From an uncultured Spirochaetia bacterium (GTDB lineage Bacteria; Desulfobacterota_D; UBA1144; Nemesobacterales; CSP1-2): a stretch of 64,000 nucleotides of DNA. The notes under the pieces were generated by a model that was not told the origin of the DNA, made no database searches, and saw only the letters and a list, made by a program, of their open reading frames with translations. A program made the translations under genes and the position numbers. The stretch spans positions 2,591 to 66,590 of the forward strand of contig CAYMEO010000001.1 of assembly GCA_964389705.1 (NCBI GenBank), given 5' to 3'. This document shows positions 1 through 7,467 of the stretch, piece by piece; positions within the stretch are counted from its first letter, which is position 1, and every line of letters starts with the position of its first letter.

Positions 1-236
1 TTTCTATTTCCTCCTTTTCGTACTGAACAGGACTTACCTTAAAACTGTAGAGAGCTTCTATAAATTCTTGTCTCGAAAGACCAGCTATCTGTGCAGCCCT
101 CTCCTGAGAGATCTTACCAATTTCATACCACTTCACCGCAGCCGCTAATCTCAATTCTTTAGCAAAGCTTTCCGGGTCTTCTTTCACAGCGGAAAAAACA
201 TCTTCAGGAAGTTCAAAAGCTATTTGGGTTGACATA
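1..236 (-). CDS. UPF0175 family antitoxin-like protein (partial; start at 236, 3' end beyond window)
   Basis: Own translation of the minus strand from the ATG at 234-236: MSTQIAFELPEDVFSAVKEDPESFAKELRLAAAVKWYEIGKISQERAAQIAGLSRQEFIEALYSFKVSPVQYEKEEIE. This matches the UPF0175 pattern MST..ELPDDL...GKIS.GKAAELAG.SR.EF.E.L. The ORF runs off the window edge. Confidence 0.5.
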
Positions 237-249
237 ATTTATCCTCCTG

Positions 250-432
250 CTATTTCTTAATTATTGGCTTATATCCTTTTTCATCAAAATGACACTTTAA
301 AGCGTCTTTAATGTTTTCCCTGAGTTCCTCTAAAGTTTCACCTTCTGTGAATATAGAATGTCCAAGGGCTTTGGCGTTATATCCGCCCTCAGGGTCTTCC
401 TCAACCATAAAAATTATCTCTTCTACTTTCAT
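250..432 (-). CDS. HicB-like antitoxin (UPF0150/HicB_lk family) small protein
   Basis: 60 aa ORF. Contains EDPEGGYNAKALGHSIFTEGETLEELRENIKDAL, which matches the HicB-like signature (GGY..P.L.G..T.GET.EEA..NI.EAL). No hicA partner was seen. Confidence 0.55.
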   Translation of the reverse strand: MKVEEIIFMVEEDPEGGYNAKALGHSIFTEGETLEELRENIKDALKCHFDEKGYKPIIKK

Positions 433-435
433 ATC

Positions 436-612
436 TCAGACCTCCCTTGAAATCAAATTTGTTACCCTCTTCTTCCCACTCAGCAAATCATCCATCAATC
501 CCTTTTTCACCCTTTCCAGCTTCTCTTTTTTCTTCCTTAACAACTCCAGCCTCTTATCCACCGTGCTGAGAATCTCAGCGATTTTTTCTGTTCAGAAAGT
601 GGAGGGATCGGT
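436..612 (-). pseudogene. 3' fragment of a second hsdS (Type I RM specificity subunit) gene, frameshifted
   Basis: Minus-strand translation gives (PIPPLSEQKK)/frameshift/IAEILSTVDKRLELLRKKKEKLERVKKGLMDDLLSGKKRVTNLISREV*. This is near-identical in DNA and protein to the C-terminus of hsdS at 1936-2100. The T-run is 6 here (582-587) versus 7 in hsdS. A stop codon lies immediately upstream and there is no N-terminal part. Confidence 0.7.
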
Positions 613-637
613 CAATGCTTTCTCCAATTCATCAATC

Positions 638-856
638 CTATTTTTCTAGAGCGTTAAGTATTCTCTGACGAAGTCCTATTATCGTAAGTCCAACCACTTC
701 CATGGTTTGCGGTTCTACCCTGGCAATTATGCCTTCTCCAATATCCATTCCTTCAGCATTTCTCGGCTCTCCAACAGAGATATAGAGAACATCTGCTTCT
801 GCATCGTATTCCCAGTTTAAATCTTTTTGTTTTTCATTAATCTTCAGGGTTTCCAT
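638..856 (-). CDS. DUF2283 domain protein (antitoxin-like)
   Basis: 72 aa. Contains WEYDAEADVLYISVGEPRNAEG...EGIIARVEPQTMEVVGLTIIGL, matching the DUF2283 pattern Y.YD.E.DALYI.L......E.....GVI.D.D..G..VGIEIL. Confidence 0.6.
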   Translation of the reverse strand: METLKINEKQKDLNWEYDAEADVLYISVGEPRNAEGMDIGEGIIARVEPQTMEVVGLTIIGLRQRILNALEK

Positions 857-886
857 GTTGTATTGAATCTATCTGAACACTGACTA

Positions 887-956
887 TGTCATTCTGAGCG
901 CAGCGAAGAATCTATGGATTTAATGCTGAGATGCTTCACTTCGTTCAGCATGACAA
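887..956. repeat. REP/MITE-like imperfect palindrome, copy A (family GTCATYCTGAGC..GAAGRATC)
   Basis: Left arm TGTCATTCTGAGCGCAGCGAAGAATCT. Loop of about 15 nt. Right arm AGATGCTTCACTTCGTTCAGCATGACA, the inverted complement. Same family as the copies at 3249, 3347, 3744, 5776 and 5879. Confidence 0.7.
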
Positions 957-997
957 ACGGATAATCCTCACCCAGATTTGACATTCCTCCTTTATCA

Positions 998-1273
998 TCA
1001 AAGAGTCCCTAACGCTTTCTCCAATTCATCCTTTTTGAACTCAAGATGGTCGAGCCTCTGTAAATCCTGCCATGTTTCTTTCTCCTCAATCTCACCTTTT
1101 TTGTATCGCTCTTCAAACTCTTCAACCGAAGAAACTCCGTATTTTGTTCTTATCTTAAAAATTTCCGTCTTTATCTCTCTCAGTTTTCTTTCCAGGAAGA
1201 GCCGTAAACTTTCTCTTAGCATCTCTTCCTTTGAAAGATTTAGCTTCTTGGCTAATTCTTCTATTTCCTTCAT
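998..1273 (-). CDS. small charged coiled-coil protein with N-terminal ribbon-helix-helix-like segment (putative antitoxin or transcriptional regulator)
   Basis: 91 aa. The N-terminus MKEIEELAKKLNLSKEEMLRESLRLFLERKL fits an RHH (strand-helix-helix) pattern. The rest is a Glu/Lys-rich helical region. No confident family assignment. The 3' end (DELEKAL) is duplicated as a fragment at 612-640. Confidence 0.35.
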   Translation of the reverse strand: MKEIEELAKKLNLSKEEMLRESLRLFLERKLREIKTEIFKIRTKYGVSSVEEFEERYKKGEIEEKETWQDLQRLDHLEFKKDELEKALGTL

Positions 1274-1314
1274 CTCTAGTTGTGTATCTTACCCCTTGTT
1301 ATAGGTTAATTTTC

Positions 1315-1924
1315 TTAGGGATTCCGTATTACTTTCTCGCTTTTTTCAATATTGTTTGGATTTTCTTTATCTGTTTCCCATTTTATAGGGTTGTTAACAA
1401 TGTATTCCCTTATACGGTTTAAGGATTCTTCATTTCTTATAATATGTTCATAATAATTGCGTTGCCATACAGGCATACCAGGCGTTTTCCGAATTATGTT
1501 TATATGTTTTGCTGAATGCATTTTATACCAACCTACGATTTTGGGAATCAACATTTTTCGGCGGAATTGTTGTAATTGTAGGGGCAATTAGCTTCGCTGA
1601 AATGCCCCACCCGCTACCCGCATTTTCATGAATTGCCCCTACGGAATCCTTGATGATAATGATTCCGTGTATGTGATTTGGCATTATAACAAATTCGTCC
1701 AATTCTACATTTAGAAAATGTTCTGGTATTTCTAACCAGAATTTCCTCACGACTTCCCCAAATGGTGACAATCTAATTAGAGATATGTTGTCATCTATAA
1801 TTTCTCCTAATAAACACTCCTTATTCTTTGTGCATATTGTTATAAAATACGCTCCCGATTTGGAATAGTCGTAATCCCTTAACCTTAGAGAATGTCTATG
1901 ATATTTTTCTCTAAAATCATTCAT
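1315..1924 (-). pseudogene. REP-associated tyrosine transposase (RAYT / IS200-like Y1 transposase), frameshifted
   Basis: Two overlapping ORFs. 1523-1924 encodes the N-terminal part: HRHSLRLRDYDYSKSGAYFITICTKN...VELDEFVIMPNHIHGIIII, with the HUH motif HIH. 1315-1587 encodes the C-terminal part: RRKMLIPKIVGWYKMHSAKHINIIRKTPGMPVWQRNYYEHIIRNEESLNRIREYIVNNP, with the catalytic Tyr region. The frames are joined only across an insertion of about 38 nt at 1588-1625. The gene starts 12 nt after the hsdS stop. Confidence 0.75.
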
Positions 1925-1935
1925 AGTTGATCCCT

Positions 1936-3231
1936 TTATCCTACTTTCACTCTTATTCTCCCACTCAGCAAATCATCCATCAACCCCTTCTTCACCCTTT
2001 CAAGCTTCTCTTTCCTCTTCCTCAACAACTCCAACCTCTTATCCACCGTAGAAAGAATCTCAGCGATTTTTTTCTGTTCGGGAAGGGGAGGGAGGGGGAG
2101 TTTTATCTTTTCTACTTGTGAGCTATTTAAGGCAGGATACTGTCCTCCTACCATCATTTTATTACATTGTTCTATAACAGGTTTTGAGAAGAGAGTATAC
2201 AGTAAATAGAGAGGCAATATTTTTTCTTTGCAAGTTAGTACAGCAAATCCTGTTGAACATATCTGGTTATCATACTCTCTAGGAACAATCGCAAATGCTT
2301 TTAAATATGGACGAACCATAGACATAATAACATCGTTATAATGAATCAATCTTCTTGCTCTTGAAGGAGCTTCTTTTCCAACCATTGCTTTAGCATTTCT
2401 AACAATTCCCCGTCCATTTTCAACAGAGTCAATATCAATATAAAAGAATTGTTTGTCTGGAAATTCTCTTGTAGGGTCTCTTGATTCTTTATTAATATCA
2501 ACTACTTCTTTTAATTCCTTAATCTCCCACTCCTTCGGTATCCTTCCTATATCCGTATCCGTTTGTTTAAATTCTCTTCTCCCCTGTCTACCGTCTACCG
2601 TATTCCGTCTACCAGTCAATAGCTCCTGCATCAAGCCCTTCTTCAGCCTCTCGGTCTTTTCTATGGCTTCATCAACCTTCTCAATGGCTTTATCCACAGT
2701 AGAAAGAATCTCTGCAATTTTTTTCTGTTCGGGAAGTGGAGGGAGAGCAATAGTAATAGCTTCCAATGTACTCTTCCTTATGGATGGTGCCGCTGTCTGT
2801 CCAGCTAGTCGTTTAAGGTCGATTTTCTCTAAAAGATAATAAAACAAAAATTCTGGTTCTATTTCATTTTTTGAAATTAGTCCTGCAACATTGTTGTCAA
2901 AAGTTCCCCAAATTTTTAGAATCCTAAATTTATTTAGGTATGTGGACATTCCAATTTTAGGAAAAATAATTGTGTTTGGTGGACAAATTTTAACCTTCAA
3001 AGTTTCTAAGATCGTATCATCTATAAAATTCTCTGAGTAGCTTATGTATTTAGGAGCAAGATTTAGATCATTTACTTTGATAAAAGGATACTTTCCATCT
3101 TTGTTTCCCTGATACTTTATAGGAAATCCAAATCCACTTACTACTTCTGCTATTTCTCCCAACCTCACCACATCCCACTCCTTCGGTATCCTTCCTATTT
3201 CTGTTTGCTTGAATTCTTGTTGTGTCGTCAT
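1936..3231 (-). CDS. hsdS: Type I restriction-modification system specificity subunit HsdS
   Basis: 431 aa. Two target-recognition domains, each preceded by EFKQT.IGRIPKEW. Two copies of the conserved coiled-coil spacer LPPLPEQKKIAEILSTVDK..E......RLKKGLMQ/DLL. This is the classic duplicated HsdS architecture. Confidence 0.9.
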   Translation of the reverse strand: MTTQQEFKQTEIGRIPKEWDVVRLGEIAEVVSGFGFPIKYQGNKDGKYPFIKVNDLNLAPKYISYSENFIDDTILETLKVKICPPNTIIFPKIGMSTYLNKFRILKIWGTFDNNVAGLISKNEIEPEFLFYYLLEKIDLKRLAGQTAAPSIRKSTLEAITIALPPLPEQKKIAEILSTVDKAIEKVDEAIEKTERLKKGLMQELLTGRRNTVDGRQGRREFKQTDTDIGRIPKEWEIKELKEVVDINKESRDPTREFPDKQFFYIDIDSVENGRGIVRNAKAMVGKEAPSRARRLIHYNDVIMSMVRPYLKAFAIVPREYDNQICSTGFAVLTCKEKILPLYLLYTLFSKPVIEQCNKMMVGGQYPALNSSQVEKIKLPLPPLPEQKKIAEILSTVDKRLELLRKRKEKLERVKKGLMDDLLSGRIRVKVG

Positions 3232-3248
3232 CCTATTTTTGCCTCTTT

Positions 3249-3324
3249 TGTCATTCTGAACGAAGTGAAGAATCTAGGGTTCAATTTAATTTCACTAGAT
3301 CCTTCGCTGTCGCTCAGGATGACA
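3249..3324. repeat. REP/MITE-like palindrome, copy B
   Basis: TGTCATTCTGAACGAAGTGAAGAATCTAG ... CTAGATCCTTCGCTGTCGCTCAGGATGACA, about 28 bp inverted arms. Confidence 0.7.
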
Positions 3325-3346
3325 GATACTATAGACCAGTCCTAGA

Positions 3347-3404
3347 TGTCATTCTGAGCCGAAGGCGAAGAATCTGAGACCCTTCGCTAACGCTCAGGGT
3401 GACA
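3347..3404. repeat. REP/MITE-like palindrome, copy C
   Basis: TGTCATTCTGAGCCGAAGGCGAAGAATCTGAG / ACCCTTCGCTAACGCTCAGGGTGACA, inverted arms. Confidence 0.7.
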
Positions 3405-3438
3405 AAAACGACCTCTTTGTTCATTGCGTTTATCAAAA

Positions 3439-3723
3439 TCATCCTTCACTCAAATCCTTCCATTCTGGATTTATGGATTCAATCAAAGCTATCTTTTTCC
3501 TTCGCAACCATCCCTTGATTTGCTTCTCCCTTGCAATCGCGGCTTGGACATCATCAGTTTCCTCATAATATACTAGCTTTGTGATGTTGTATTTTTTAGT
3601 GAAGCCATCAATCATTTTGTTTTTATGTTCATAGACGCGTCTCATTAGGTCGTTTGTCACACCTGTATATAATGTCTTTGAACGGTTGGTCATTATGTAA
3701 ACATAATATCGGTTCATTTGCAC
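3439..3723 (-). CDS. GIY-YIG nuclease family protein (YhbQ/UPF0213-like small standalone nuclease domain)
   Basis: 94 aa. Motif YVYIMTNRSKTLYTGVTNDLMRRVYEHKN matches GIY-(10-11)-YTG..R...H.. Flanked on both sides by the REP-like palindromes. Confidence 0.85.
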   Translation of the reverse strand: MQMNRYYVYIMTNRSKTLYTGVTNDLMRRVYEHKNKMIDGFTKKYNITKLVYYEETDDVQAAIAREKQIKGWLRRKKIALIESINPEWKDLSEG

Positions 3724-3743
3724 AATTGCCTTAGTTGGCTATG

Positions 3744-3831
3744 TGTCATTCTGAGCCGAAGCGTAGCGAAGGCGAAGAATCCCGGAGTTTGAGATGCTTC
3801 GCTAGATCCTTCGCTGTTGCTCAGGATGACA
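3744..3831. repeat. REP/MITE-like palindrome, copy D
   Basis: TGTCATTCTGAGCCGAAGCGTAGCGAAGGCGAAGAATCCCGGAG / ...GATCCTTCGCTGTTGCTCAGGATGACA. Confidence 0.7.
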
Positions 3832-3852
3832 GCATTGATTAATAAAATTAAC

Positions 3853-5610
3853 TCACAAGCCGTTACTTTCCTTTAGCTCCCTAAGATACCCATCAATCCT
3901 TCTTTCAATCTCCTGAAGCTCCTCCTCCAATGCACGGATTTCCTTCCACTCTTCCTCAACATTTATCTCTTCGCTTTCTTCCTCAGGAAACACATAAAGC
4001 GTAACATTCAGGTTATAGTCATTCTCTTTTATCTTTTCCAAATCAACAGCCTTAGAAAACCCATCTGAATCTTTGAATTCCCTATAAGCCTCAACTATTT
4101 TCTCTATATTCTCATCTCCCAGTTGGTTGAGTTTCCTTACTTCAGGGTGCTGTTTGAATTCCCTACTTGCGTTTATGAATAGTATTTTCCCTCTTCTTTC
4201 CTCCGGCTTGTTTTTATTGAGGATTATCACGGCCCCAGGCGCTCCTGTGTTATAGAAGAGCTTTTCGGGAAGGAGAATGACGGATTCTATCAAATCGGAA
4301 TTTACTACCCCTGTTCTTATTACCTTTTCCTTTCCTCCCCTAAAAAGGCAACCGTTGTCTATTACAACTCCAACCCTTCCCGTCTTGTCATACGCAGAAG
4401 CCAGCATGTGCTCTATCCATGCCCAGTCTGCGGACTGCTTGGGAGGAAACCCGAACTTAAATCTCTCCTTCCAGAACTCCCCTCGCTTCAGGATTTCCTC
4501 ATCGTATCCGTCTTGATTCCACGGCGGATTGGCTATCACGATATCGAATCTCTTTATTCTTTCACCTTCTTTAAACTTGGGATAAAGCAATGTGTCTCCA
4601 AGTGTAAGCTGAGCGTTTCTTATATCATGTATGTAGAGATTCATTTTAGATAGGGCAAGTGTCTTATGATTGGCTTCTTGTCCAAAGAGAAAGAGCCTAT
4701 CCGCTTCGCCTTTTCCGTGTTCATTCTCAACATGCTGGTATGAGGTTATGAGCATACCTCCAGAGCCACACGCCGGGTCATAAACGCCTTCACCGGGCTT
4801 TGGATTGAGTATTTCAACAATGAGTTTTATAACCTCTCGCGGGGTGTATACCTCTCCCTCTTTAGCCTTCTGAGGGGCAAAATATCTCAAAATCCATTCG
4901 TAGGCATCTCCAAGGATGTCTGGGGATACATGATTAAGAGGCTTGGCGCTGAAGAGTTCAACAAGCTGCCTTAATATCTCCGCGTTTTCCCTATTTGTGG
5001 TGAATTGAACAAAGTCCACATTTTCAAATACGTCCTTGAGTTCCGGGTTTCTCTCCGCGAGGGTCTTCATCGCCTTTGAGAAGTTTTCAGGCAACCTTGC
5101 GGGCTCTTTTCTTATTTCTTTCCACAGGAATCCTTCGGGAATGTCGAAGTCATGGTAAATCGAATTCTTGGCTTCTTCTCTTGCCTCTTTGTCACTTAGC
5201 CCATCCGAAAGGGCTTCGTTATAAGCCCCTTCAAACTCCATTTCCCACTTATCGCTTATTCTCTTATAGAAGAGGAGAACGAGTATGAAGCTGTAATCAA
5301 CCCTTGTCCTTATGAGATCGGCTGCCCCTTTTAGAAGCGATTCAAGGTCGCTCCTTGTTAATTGATTTTTATCTATTGATAACCTCTCGGATATTATTTT
5401 CACTCTGTTTTCCAGCCGGTATATCCTCTTTCTAGCATCCTCGGAATCAAACTCCACTTTTAACAATTTCTGCTTTCTTAGCTCGGAGAGGAAAACATTT
5501 ATCTGATCTTCACTATCCTGCATCTTCTCTTTAAGAACCTTGGCGGCGTCTTCAAAACGGAAATCATTGTCATGGTGCTCATCCCCACAGAATCTTATAT
5601 CTCTTCTCAA
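3853..5610 (-). CDS. hsdM: Type I restriction-modification system DNA methyltransferase subunit HsdM (N6-adenine)
   Basis: 585 aa. HsdM N-terminal domain. SAM motif I is DPACGSGGML. Motif IV is NPPW (FDIVIANPPWNQ). Confidence 0.9.
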   Translation of the reverse strand: MRRDIRFCGDEHHDNDFRFEDAAKVLKEKMQDSEDQINVFLSELRKQKLLKVEFDSEDARKRIYRLENRVKIISERLSIDKNQLTRSDLESLLKGAADLIRTRVDYSFILVLLFYKRISDKWEMEFEGAYNEALSDGLSDKEAREEAKNSIYHDFDIPEGFLWKEIRKEPARLPENFSKAMKTLAERNPELKDVFENVDFVQFTTNRENAEILRQLVELFSAKPLNHVSPDILGDAYEWILRYFAPQKAKEGEVYTPREVIKLIVEILNPKPGEGVYDPACGSGGMLITSYQHVENEHGKGEADRLFLFGQEANHKTLALSKMNLYIHDIRNAQLTLGDTLLYPKFKEGERIKRFDIVIANPPWNQDGYDEEILKRGEFWKERFKFGFPPKQSADWAWIEHMLASAYDKTGRVGVVIDNGCLFRGGKEKVIRTGVVNSDLIESVILLPEKLFYNTGAPGAVIILNKNKPEERRGKILFINASREFKQHPEVRKLNQLGDENIEKIVEAYREFKDSDGFSKAVDLEKIKENDYNLNVTLYVFPEEESEEINVEEEWKEIRALEEELQEIERRIDGYLRELKESNGL

Positions 5611-5775
5611 GCCAGTTGGGTATCATAAGCTTCCTCCCTCGATTATATAAGCTTTTAAACAATTACTTATACTATAAGCAGAAAGGATAATTATCAAGAG
5701 AAGGTAGAAAAATCGCAGTCAAAAGTAGAAGAAAGGATTAGAAATGACATCTAGAGCTGATATTATAATAGGGTC

Positions 5776-5845
5776 TGTCATCCTGAGCGGTAGCGAAGGA
5801 TCTACCTCTTCTGGCTTCTTTGTCGCTTCGCTCCTCAGAATGACA
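5776..5845. repeat. REP/MITE-like palindrome, copy E
   Basis: TGTCATCCTGAGCGGTAGCGAAGGATCTACC ... TGTCGCTTCGCTCCTCAGAATGACA. Confidence 0.65.
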
Positions 5846-5878
5846 TTTATGGGTGTATTGGAGTTGCTCCCGGTATTT

Positions 5879-5990
5879 GTCACTCTGAGCACATTCATTA
5901 TTATTCAGTGTAAACTCCGCGAAGAATCTCGGAGTGCTAGACCCTTCGCGGAGTTTACACTGAATAAGGCACGCCCTGAGTGCAACCGAA
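5879..5990. repeat. REP/MITE-like element, copy F, with nested perfect 19 bp inverted repeat
   Basis: GTCACTCTGAGC...CAGTGTAAACTCCGCGAAG AATCTCGGAGTGCTAGACC CTTCGCGGAGTTTACACTG...GCCCTGAGTGCAAC. Confidence 0.65.
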
Positions 5991-6066
5991 GGGTGAATGT
6001 GTTTGGAATGATAACACTAAATGCAAAGTTTGACTCATCTTCAACTCTAATTTAACCTAAACCCGC

Positions 6067-7467
6067 ATGAGTGTGAGAACGAGATTTGCTCCAAGCCCAA
6101 CGGGGGCGCTCCATATAGGCGGGGCAAGGACTGCGATCTTTAACTGGCTTTTTGCAAGGCACTATGGCGGAAAATTTATTCTCCGAATTGAAGACACAGA
6201 TCGTGCCCGCTCTACCGAAGAATCTGTATCTGAGATATTAGATGGCATGACATGGCTCGGACTCAATTGGGATGAGGGTCCGTTCAGGCAGTCCGATAGA
6301 CTCTCTATTTACCAGGAATATGCCGAAAGGCTCCTTCAGTCTGGAAAGGCATACAGATGCTATTGCACGCCAGATGAGCTTGATAGGAGAAGGAAAGAGG
6401 CGGAAAAACAGGGAAGGATCTACAGATACGAGGGCACATGCAGAAGTCTGAAATCCAATCCCCTAGATAAGCCCTTTGCTATCCGTCTTATGACTCCTGA
6501 GGTGGGGACCATTGAGGTTGATGATTTAATTAGGGGAATTATCCATTTTGATGCCAAAGAGATTGACGATTTTGTTATTCAAAAGACAGATGGGTTTCCG
6601 ACATATAACTTTGCCGTAGTAATTGATGATGCCACTATGGATATAACCCACGTCATACGCGGGGACGACCATATTGCAAACACCCCAAAACAGATCCTCA
6701 TATATGAGGCGTTATCTCAAGGGATTCCCAAATTCGCTCATGTCTCAATGATTCTTGGCTCTGATAAGGCAAGACTAAGCAAGAGACACGGCGCTACCTC
6801 GGTCATTGCATATAGGGAGATGGGCTATCTTCCGGAGGCGGTTGTAAACTATCTTGCCCGTCTCGGCTGGTCTTATGGGGATCAAGAGATCTTTTCAAAA
6901 GAAGAGTTGATTGAGAAATTCACGCTTGAGAATGTGGGGAAATCTGCTGCCGTTTTTAATCCTGAAAAACTCTTATGGCTAAACGGTTGGTATATAAGAA
7001 ACAAACCGGCTGAGGAGATTGCGAGGCTTCTGATTCCGTTCCTACAAAAGAAGGGATTTCAGGTTGCTTTCGATGAGAGGCTTATAAAGATCGTAAGTGT
7101 ACTTCGAGAAAGGGCAAAGACACTCCTAGAGCTCGCTGACTCTGCGCAATATTTCTTCACCGATGAAATCAAGTATGAAGAGGTGGCTCGAAAGAAGTTT
7201 CTTACATCCGATGCGCTTCCGATTCTTGAAGAACTCATAAATAGGCTCTCTTCCCTTCATGATTTTACGGCCCCAGAGCTGCAAAGGATATTTGGAGAAA
7301 TTACGGAGAGGAGGGGAATAAAGCTCATTCAAATCGCCCAGCCAACAAGGGTTGCTCTTACCGGAGGAACGGTAAGCCCTGGAATCTTCGAGGTAATGGA
7401 GATTCTAGGAAAGGATAGGGTGATAGAGAGATTAAAAAGGGCAGTCTCCTATATTTCAAAAAATTAA
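6067..7467 (+). CDS. gltX: glutamyl-tRNA synthetase
   Basis: 466 aa. RFAPSPTGALHIGGARTA (HIGH motif). ...RLSKRHGA (KMSKS-like motif). Typical GltX length. Confidence 0.95.
   Translation: MSVRTRFAPSPTGALHIGGARTAIFNWLFARHYGGKFILRIEDTDRARSTEESVSEILDGMTWLGLNWDEGPFRQSDRLSIYQEYAERLLQSGKAYRCYCTPDELDRRRKEAEKQGRIYRYEGTCRSLKSNPLDKPFAIRLMTPEVGTIEVDDLIRGIIHFDAKEIDDFVIQKTDGFPTYNFAVVIDDATMDITHVIRGDDHIANTPKQILIYEALSQGIPKFAHVSMILGSDKARLSKRHGATSVIAYREMGYLPEAVVNYLARLGWSYGDQEIFSKEELIEKFTLENVGKSAAVFNPEKLLWLNGWYIRNKPAEEIARLLIPFLQKKGFQVAFDERLIKIVSVLRERAKTLLELADSAQYFFTDEIKYEEVARKKFLTSDALPILEELINRLSSLHDFTAPELQRIFGEITERRGIKLIQIAQPTRVALTGGTVSPGIFEVMEILGKDRVIERLKRAVSYISKN

Follow-up and report, generated by a model that had tools for sequence, protein, structure and literature searches.

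TGTC-tagged hairpin repeats bracketing a GIY-YIG gene in a type I restriction-modification island are probably targets of an Ssn-family nuclease

The DNA analyzed here (the window) is a stretch of 64 kb from an uncultured Spirochaetia bacterium (contig CAYMEO010000001.1, positions 2,591 to 66,590), at the left end of which lies a type I restriction-modification (R-M) island. Between hsdM (3853-5610, minus strand) and hsdS (1936-3231, minus strand), this island contains a small gene of the ssnA type, coding for a protein with a single GIY-YIG domain (3439..3717, minus strand). Six palindromic repeats are distributed over the island (887-956, 3249-3324, 3347-3404, 3744-3831, 5776-5845, and from 5879 onward). 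A sequence-only reading of the window had described the repeats as related to repetitive extragenic palindromic (REP) elements or miniature inverted-repeat transposable elements (MITEs), and had connected them with a nearby gene for a REP-associated tyrosine transposase (RAYT). That they bracket the GIY-YIG gene on both sides had been mentioned only in passing, which is correct (the fourth repeat is located 21 nt upstream of the gene and the third 35 nt downstream of it) and is the key to the identity of the repeats. Most probably, they represent one variant among the CGTC/TGTC-tagged REP hairpins, also known as Ssn-related motifs (SRM), and the GIY-YIG protein of 92 aa is their cognate, site-specific endonuclease for single-stranded DNA (ssDNA) of the Ssn family.

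The six REP-like palindromes are genuine and located where they had been reported, as motif count, repeat finding, and a covariance model agree. When the whole window was scanned for GTCAYYCTGAGC, the motif at the ends of the repeats, with up to 1 mismatch allowed, 10 matches were obtained, all between 888 and 5890, where 0.76 were expected over 64 kb; none of the 100 shuffled versions that served as the control reached 10. Repeat finding on the window recovered the arm families together with their inverted-repeat relations. The individual copies, for which RNA folding had been suggested as a check, all formed long DNA hairpins (six of six; z −2.2 to −8.8). A covariance model of the repeat unit (CM R1), run on the window with filters off, returned 10 units with E ≤ 0.016, all within 884-5848. 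Nothing better than 11 bits (E > 1) was found in the remaining 58 kb, so the confinement to the first 6 kb holds for this window; the 2.6 kb of the source contig to the left of it (up to the contig end) contained no unit either. Compared with the gene calls of the window, every copy is intergenic, again as described. A 103-aa ORF at 5744-6055 (plus strand), included among the gene calls of the source contig (L122 7663-7974), consists almost wholly of the fifth and sixth repeats, has no Pfam match, and is very likely a spurious gene call. Rfam, queried with the repeats at gathering and permissive thresholds, returned only meaningless, miRNA-like hairpin matches, and in the literature the literal repeat sequence was met only as coincidental primer matches.

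Each “arm” of a palindrome is a self-complementary hairpin unit in its own right, and the six palindromes are head-to-head dimers of such units with their tags facing outward. The unit comprises ∼25-26 nt with the layout (T/C)GTC-ATYCT-GA-GC-GNA-GC-GA-AGRAT-C, i.e., a (T/C)GTC tag and a 5-bp ATYCT/AGRAT stem, to which two G.A juxtapositions and a GC/GC stem are added; a loop of the GNA or GNNA type closes the hairpin, and a conserved C follows it. Its stem has 9 positions (7 Watson-Crick plus 2 G.A), starting with A-T followed by T-A or C-G; the loop measures 3-4 nt, or 5-6 nt without counting the C-G closing pair, and the 3′ tail has the consensus C-T-C/A. The tag is TGTC in ∼90% of the units, with CGTC, AGTC, and GGTC as variants; in the unit alignment (A1), G5 and C7 do not vary, and T6 and C29 show a conservation of at least 90%. 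The center of the unit corresponds to d(GCGNAGC)/d(GCGNNAGC), and both GCGNAGC and GCGNNAGC are known as extraordinarily stable DNA mini-hairpins (PMC13037366).

Dimer 1 consists of unit 1a (884..916, plus strand; TGTC tag, ATTCT/AGAAT stem, GCGCAGC mini-hairpin; 48.3 bits with CM R1, as all following scores, E 2.5e-10) and unit 1b (926..958, minus strand; 45.1 bits), the stem of which, ATGCT/AGCAT, differs from that of 1a, making it a heterodimer. Dimer 2, directly upstream of the hsdS start, is composed of unit 2a (3246..3278, plus strand; 48.4 bits) and unit 2b (3294..3327, minus strand; stem ATCCT/AGGAT, loop core GCGACAGC of the GCGNNAGC type; 44.6 bits). In dimer 3, situated 3′ of the ssnA stop, unit 3a (3344..3378, plus strand; 36.5 bits; alignment A1) contains an extra C-G pair (GCCGAAGGC), and unit 3b (3374..3407, minus strand; stem ACCCT/AGGGT; 47.4 bits) is 35 nt away from the stop codon. 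On the other side of the gene, unit 4a (3741..3785, plus strand; 31.9 bits, E 4.9e-6) has a loop enlarged by internal duplication (CGAAGCGTAGCGAAGGCGAAG), and unit 4b (3801..3834, minus strand; 41.2 bits) adjoins the hsdM stop codon. Dimer 5, upstream of hsdM, is made up of unit 5a (5773..5806, plus strand; 42.7 bits) and the degenerate unit 5b (5810..5848, minus strand; 18.4 bits, E 0.016). The sixth copy deviates most: unit 6a (5879..5929, plus strand) carries a loop insert of ∼28 nt (ACATTCATTATTATTCAGTGTAAACTCC) and one stem mismatch and scored 8.6 bits only, and its decayed partner 6b (5939..6013, minus strand; tag TATC, with a further nested insert) was recognized by repeat finding and by alignment with two relatives of the island (L235 and L242). 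The subfamily of 6a reached 32-34 bits in the relatives L235 and L241. As the comparison with relatives shows, copy 6 is a head-to-head dimer in decay, the units of which belong to a subfamily characterized by the ∼28-nt loop insert. It is this insert, in 6a and 6b, that gives rise to the perfect nested inverted repeat, which measures 24 bp and not 19 bp as noted before. Also, the copy does not end at 5990 but extends to ∼6013 (outer arms 5877-5897 and 5994-6014).

In the arm consensus of the sequence-only reading, T/C (5′ half) and A/G (3′ half) were listed as free alternatives; within an arm, the two covary as a base pair. This was seen in a cross-phylum pattern search (one genome per species) for GTCATYCTGAGC-N(2-8)-GCGAAGRATC, in which Y and R were allowed to vary independently and which yielded at least 120 loci. 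Among the 156 matches listed, the Y/R combination was C-G in 94, T-A in 59, and mismatched in 3; 103 of the matches had a GNA loop. Near GIY-YIG genes selected by protein similarity, the units showed covariation at four stem positions, including G-C where the search pattern expected Y-R, and both G.A juxtapositions were invariant. When 90 distinct units were aligned, 97.8% of the cells were paired, and double-sided changes amounted to 102 cells versus 32 ± 11.5 in shuffles (0 of 500 reached the observed value). Sliding the 3′ partner, as a control, let pairing fall to 19-48%. Longer unit variants contained a whole extra C-G pair (GCCGNAGGC). Furthermore, the stems differ within each of the canonical dimers 1-5 of the window (ATTCT with ATGCT, ATCCT, or ACCCT; ATCCT with ATTCT in dimer 5). 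Thus, pairing within the unit is kept where pairing from arm to arm is broken. All window copies are head-to-head, and in the pattern-selected loci, 62 head-to-head, 10 tail-to-tail, and 8 head-to-tail dimers were counted among the matches listed.

The ssnA-type gene codes for 92 aa when read from the ATG at 3717 (94 aa from the GTG at 3723), and the identical protein (P0001) was called at 92 aa on the source contig. GIY-YIG is its only Pfam domain (E 2.5e-15). No NCBIfam model matched, the only relative in the PDB was the distant UPF0213 protein BH0048 (E 2.7e-4), and one relative was found in viral contigs. A tblastn search of PLSDB with the window protein found a single match in the chromosome of Neisseria gonorrhoeae (E 5e-20); the 2.17-Mb replicon concerned (NZ_CP119140.1, L247) is filed as a plasmid in that database but is evidently the chromosome. 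The matching ORF encodes 94 aa, contains Y6, Y17, and E64, which are the residues mutated in the study on SsnA (PMC11893778), and has nine NTS copies within ∼1 kb; therefore, it is gonococcal SsnA. In a pairwise alignment, the window protein and gonococcal SsnA were 49% identical (E 5e-30), with Y7, Y17, and E64 of the former opposite the catalytic and metal-binding residues Y6, Y17, and E64 of the latter. SsnA is a single-domain GIY-YIG protein of 94 aa, the target of which, NTS (CGTCATTCCCGCGMAVGCGGGAATCYRG), is an oriented form of dRS3 (Chenal et al, 2025, Nat Commun 16:2388, PMC11893778). It binds this hairpin solely as ssDNA, on one strand, and cuts it a few nucleotides upstream; mutagenesis showed that cleavage and binding depend critically on the GTC preceding the palindrome and on the C that follows (PMC11893778). 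In N. meningitidis, the Ssn system restricts transformation by NTS-bearing DNA, and among ssnA homologs in general, 71% lie close to Ssn-related motifs, and in 42% such motifs flank the gene on either side (PMC11893778).

Whether relatives of the window gene are accompanied by the window-type unit was assessed in 80 metagenome loci, for the selection of which nothing but resemblance to the window protein (66-87% identity) had counted. In 57 of the 68 loci with both flanks (>150 nt on each side), a unit was present at most 300 nt from the GIY-YIG gene, and in 32 of the 68, units were present on both sides. Unit density was 3.66 per kb within 300 nt of the gene; in the bins farther away, it ranged from 0 to 0.27 per kb, with most values at 0.1-0.2. 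In one metagenome locus (L203, 777-1293), an array of at least 14 units of mostly alternating orientation, reminiscent of bacterial interspersed mosaic elements, occupies ∼500 nt directly downstream of the GIY-YIG gene.

The genes that the window dimers separate are co-oriented and belong to one operon, and as RNA, too, the dimers would fold into strong hairpins; furthermore, E. coli REPs are reported to act as elements of 3′-untranslated regions. The units could, then, primarily function at the RNA level, as terminators, mRNA stabilizers, or attenuators in the hsdM-ssnA-hsdS transcript, their association with the GIY-YIG gene being incidental. We consider this improbable, since it leaves the tight clustering around ssnA unexplained and since the units occur on both strands relative to the neighboring genes, have no match in Rfam, and contain a loop that is a DNA mini-hairpin motif. 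G-U or U-G pairs were rare in the 90-unit alignment (16 of 630 cells), compared with 102 Watson-Crick double changes, and SsnA does not bind RNA (PMC11893778). A secondary effect of the units on RNA may exist.

The closest known system is that of NTS/dRS3 repeats and SsnA in Neisseria meningitidis. Both systems consist of a single-domain GIY-YIG protein of 92-94 aa with aligned catalytic residues, the gene of which is bracketed by oriented hairpin repeats, and in both the repeats cluster around particular genes. The repeats share a (C/T)GTC tag, an AT-initiated palindrome, and a C (NTS CGTCATTCCCGCGMAVGCGGGAATC versus window unit TGTCATYCTGAGCGNAGCGAAGRATC); the determinants found by mutagenesis of the SsnA target, i.e., GTC ahead of the stem and C behind it, are invariant or nearly so in the units. 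The two systems differ in the interior of the stem, which is CTGAGC...GCGAAG with two G.A in the window and CCCGC...GCGGG in NTS, in the host, which belongs to an uncultured lineage in the case of the window (an Ffh cluster mate with 90% identity bears the name Candidatus Dadabacteria), and in the location of the window gene, which separates hsdM from hsdS in a type I R-M operon. That the protein and the units at this locus act as a pair is predicted from the homology to SsnA and by analogy to Neisseria and Wolbachia.

A second group of known repeats to which the units correspond are the CGTC-tagged REPs, which include dRS3 of Neisseria and RPE-4/6 of Rickettsia and which possess a CGTC, TGTC, or CCTC tag, a stem of 8-9 positions starting A-T, T-A, a loop of 4-5 nt, and a CCA-type tail (Di Nocera, De Gregorio, and Rocco, 2013, PMC3733652). 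Head-to-head dimers, often heterodimers, predominate among them, tail-to-tail dimers are rare, and head-to-tail dimers negligible; they have no associated transposase and were never linked to RAYTs (PMC3733652). The window-type unit shares with them the CGTC/TGTC tag, the predominance of head-to-head dimers, often heterodimers, and the lack of association with a transposase. Its stem of 9 positions, beginning with A-T and then T-A or C-G, and its short loop, of 3-4 nt or 5-6 nt depending on whether the C-G closing pair is included in the stem, come near to theirs. Unlike them, it has a CTC/CTA tail instead of CCA, and its distribution far exceeds the five phyla listed in PMC3733652: among the matches listed, it was present in more than 15 phyla, including Nitrospirota, Chloroflexota, Acidobacteriota, Bacteroidota, Bacillota, Planctomycetota, Verrucomicrobiota, Omnitrophota, the candidate phyla radiation (CPR), Campylobacterota (Helicobacter), and Cyanobacteriota. 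Two other systems resemble it in part. Insertion sequences (IS) of the IS200/IS605 type likewise rely on the recognition of subterminal hairpins in ssDNA and on cleavage a few nucleotides 5′ of the hairpin, but no Y1 transposase is involved at the window repeats, and neither defined left and right ends nor a target tetranucleotide were identified. The REP/REPIN-RAYT systems (Nunvar, 2010; Bertels and Rainey, 2011) also feature ssDNA-type hairpins with an unpaired 5′ tag, arranged as inverted doublets, and a single associated nuclease gene flanked by repeats; their enzyme, however, is of the HUH/Y1 class instead of GIY-YIG, and their tag is GTAG instead of TGTC.

Several observations weigh against assigning the units to the Ssn-related motifs. 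The degenerate SRM pattern published for these motifs, HGTCWYN(0-2)YYVSBRHN(0-5)WNVSBRGN(0-2)RNCYNB (PMC11893778), had no match in the window and fitted not one of the 452 units in the loci; copies of the Neisseria NTS did match. The failure is due to the G.A positions of the unit, which violate the pattern, and the pattern is a search device of its authors, not a biochemical definition. As the unit variant escapes it, published censuses of Ssn-associated repeats probably undercount. Among the matches listed, ssnA was present in only 5 of 120 pattern-selected 8-kb loci, and most units in other genomes are far from any ssnA. Such units are expected for dispersed repeats, yet how they spread is left unexplained. 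Finally, although nearest-neighbor minimum free energy folding of DNA returned the proposed hairpin for eight of eight single window units, the energies (−0.8 to −4.7 kcal/mol) were no better than those of shuffles. Probably, the nearest-neighbor parameters do not credit the G.A and GNA motifs; because of these per-unit energies, the structural claim rests on the covariation.

The island in which the units reside is a recombinant. By blastn, it is a mosaic: 474-2745 of the window, a segment with the distal half of hsdS, RAYT, the gene for a ribbon-helix-helix (RHH) protein, dimer 1, and DUF2283, shares 92% identity with one relative (L204, 1833-4049), and 3173-7000 together with 283-607 is 93-94% identical to another one (L235, 737-5881), which is without the RAYT. 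A 3′ remnant of hsdS at ∼474-650 (minus strand) marks the joint. It looks, from the arrangement of these segments, as if a swap of the hsdS target-recognition domain brought along the RAYT, the RHH gene, dimer 1, and DUF2283. The remaining genes to the left of hsdS, all on the minus strand, are those for a UPF0175 protein (2-235), a 60-aa ORF without family match (250-432), DUF2283 (638-856), and the RHH protein (998-1273); on the other side of hsdM, gltX (6067-7467) is located on the plus strand. Small genes of this kind, resembling toxin-antitoxin genes, are interleaved between hsdS and hsdR (window 2-1273; L122 12445-14227) and comprise UPF0175 plus a DUF3368/PIN-like gene, the 60-aa ORF, the RHH protein, and DUF2283; in L235, the counterpart of the 60-aa ORF adjoins a HicA toxin gene.

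Relatives of the island retain the order gltX-dimers-hsdM-ssnA-dimers-hsdS, with the number of dimers varying; in L242, a single dimer takes the place of copies 5 and 6 of the window. An empty site for ssnA between hsdM and hsdS was not encountered, all relatives retrieved carrying the gene, and L241 was rejected as an independent context of ssnA, as it shares the 3′ end of hsdM. A different context is provided by plasmid p1 of Planktothrix agardhii (L248, NZ_LR882964.1 16844-21116), where a GIY-YIG gene with 82% identity, flanked by window-type units, is situated between a type IIL MmeI gene and drmA of a DISARM system; two more dimers (251-410) lie inside the annotated coding sequence of MmeI. 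When the 80 GIY-centered loci were searched with HsdM, HsdS, HsdR, MmeI, and DrmA (tblastn), HsdS was found in 2 loci and nothing else was found. A general association of ssnA relatives with defense islands was dropped as a candidate; with an R-M neighbor in only 2 of 80 loci, no general link to defense is claimed.

The RAYT-like gene, to which the sequence-only reading had tied the repeats, lies at 1315-1924 (minus strand) between hsdS and the RHH gene. Its presence in the island and the resemblance of inverted hairpin doublets to REPINs would fit with the units being REP/REPIN elements that are mobilized by this Y1 HUH transposase. The gene matched Pfam Y1_Tnp with 22.3 bits, on its C-terminal half, and NCBIfam REP_Tyr_transpos with 58 bits, in both cases under the curated cut-off (23 and 80 bits, respectively). 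It is also split by an exact 37-nt insertion (1590-1626; plus strand AGCTTCGCTGAAATGCCCCACCCGCTACCCGCATTTT), centered in the gene's own perfect palindrome GGGGCAATT-CATG-AATTGCCCC, which encodes GAIHELP. The insertion shifts the frame, and its removal in silico restored the invariant VGAIHELPL motif; an intact ortholog without insertion (P0121, L204) is 88% identical. The covariance model detected no unit flanking the gene, and the tag of the units is (T/C)GTC, not GTAG. Outside the source contig, no RAYT homolog was present in the 203 loci that had been retrieved for a unit or for a GIY-YIG relative. Conversely, among 31 RAYT-centered loci, representing four contexts, units occurred only in the syntenic R-M island of L204, 330 nt away and behind another gene; homologs in the three other contexts had none. 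No RAYT relative was present in viral contigs, a literature search for a link between GIY-YIG and RAYT proteins returned nothing relevant, and the published CGTC REPs are, as mentioned, without such a link. Mobilization of the units by the RAYT is, thus, very improbable. The RAYT-like gene arrived within the recombined hsdS block and is a bystander pseudogene. Apart from the question of the repeats, RAYT-like homologs were also observed directly downstream of other R-M genes, namely, hsdS (L204, 2648-3232) and an MmeI-type methylase-endonuclease (L215-L224, ∼3001-3525), as single genes without flanking repeats; the linkage between RAYT-like and R-M genes may be a recurrent one.

The label “MITE-like” is not established, either. 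With their inverted terminal arms, a variable center that spans 60-140 bp, and their presence in some relatives but not in others, the repeats could pass for classical MITEs, i.e., deletion derivatives of an insertion sequence of the DDE type with terminal inverted repeats. However, inspection of the five clean dimers revealed no obvious target-site duplication or direct repeat, each arm folds by itself and also occurs singly, the island contains no DDE transposase, and a parental DDE insertion sequence was not found. The occurrence of the unit in more than 15 phyla, among the matches listed, is also unlike that of IS-derived MITEs. An origin of this kind is extremely improbable.

If the units are the targets of the GIY-YIG protein, as we favor, the system could operate as follows. 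The activity has been shown for SsnA of Neisseria and Wolbachia, and we infer it for the window protein. Upon DNA becoming single-stranded, be it during replication or repair or as incoming transforming or conjugative DNA, the unit would fold. The nuclease would bind the folded unit sequence-specifically, on the tagged strand only, and cut a few nucleotides 5′ of the (T/C)GTC tag. Since the units are arranged head to head with the tags outward, a dimer, or a unit-ssnA-unit configuration, would receive two cuts, on opposite strands and at the outer edges. Unit-bearing ssDNA would be fragmented, and less recombination would take place across unit-flanked genes, in the present case those of the type I R-M system. 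Break repair might, in addition, allow the units to spread or to turn over.

By analogy, ssnA together with its flanking units may plausibly represent an IS-like, selfish module. The arrangement NTS-ssnA-NTS has been likened to an insertion sequence, and module mobility was raised in the discussion of that study, although not tested there (Chenal et al, 2025, PMC11893778). In a more far-reaching version, TGTC-hairpin/ssnA/hairpin-GACA would be an IS-like element that is autonomous and spreads horizontally. The head-to-head dimers would derive from it and lack the gene, and the Ssn nuclease would be the missing mobilizer of the CGTC REPs. We are doubtful of this version, which should be taken as speculative. 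To our knowledge, no strand-transfer chemistry exists for GIY-YIG enzymes. If it were true, the near-identity of the unit and the 66-87% identity of the proteins across more than 15 phyla (among the matches listed) would reflect mobility of the module. In a weaker variant, the module may be the ssDNA-restriction arm of defense islands, residing here inside a type I R-M operon and, on the Planktothrix plasmid, between MmeI and drmA; the scarcity of R-M genes next to relatives (the 2 of 80 loci) speaks against it.

With the repeats identified, attention shifts from the RAYT pseudogene to the GIY-YIG gene. The window system is an uncharacterized new member of the Ssn/SRM (CGTC-REP) systems described in 2025, and it documents a very widespread variant of the unit, with an interior formed by tandem G.A and a GNA mini-hairpin. 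The window protein and its unit are a candidate new specificity for the Ssn toolbox of site-specific ssDNA nucleases.

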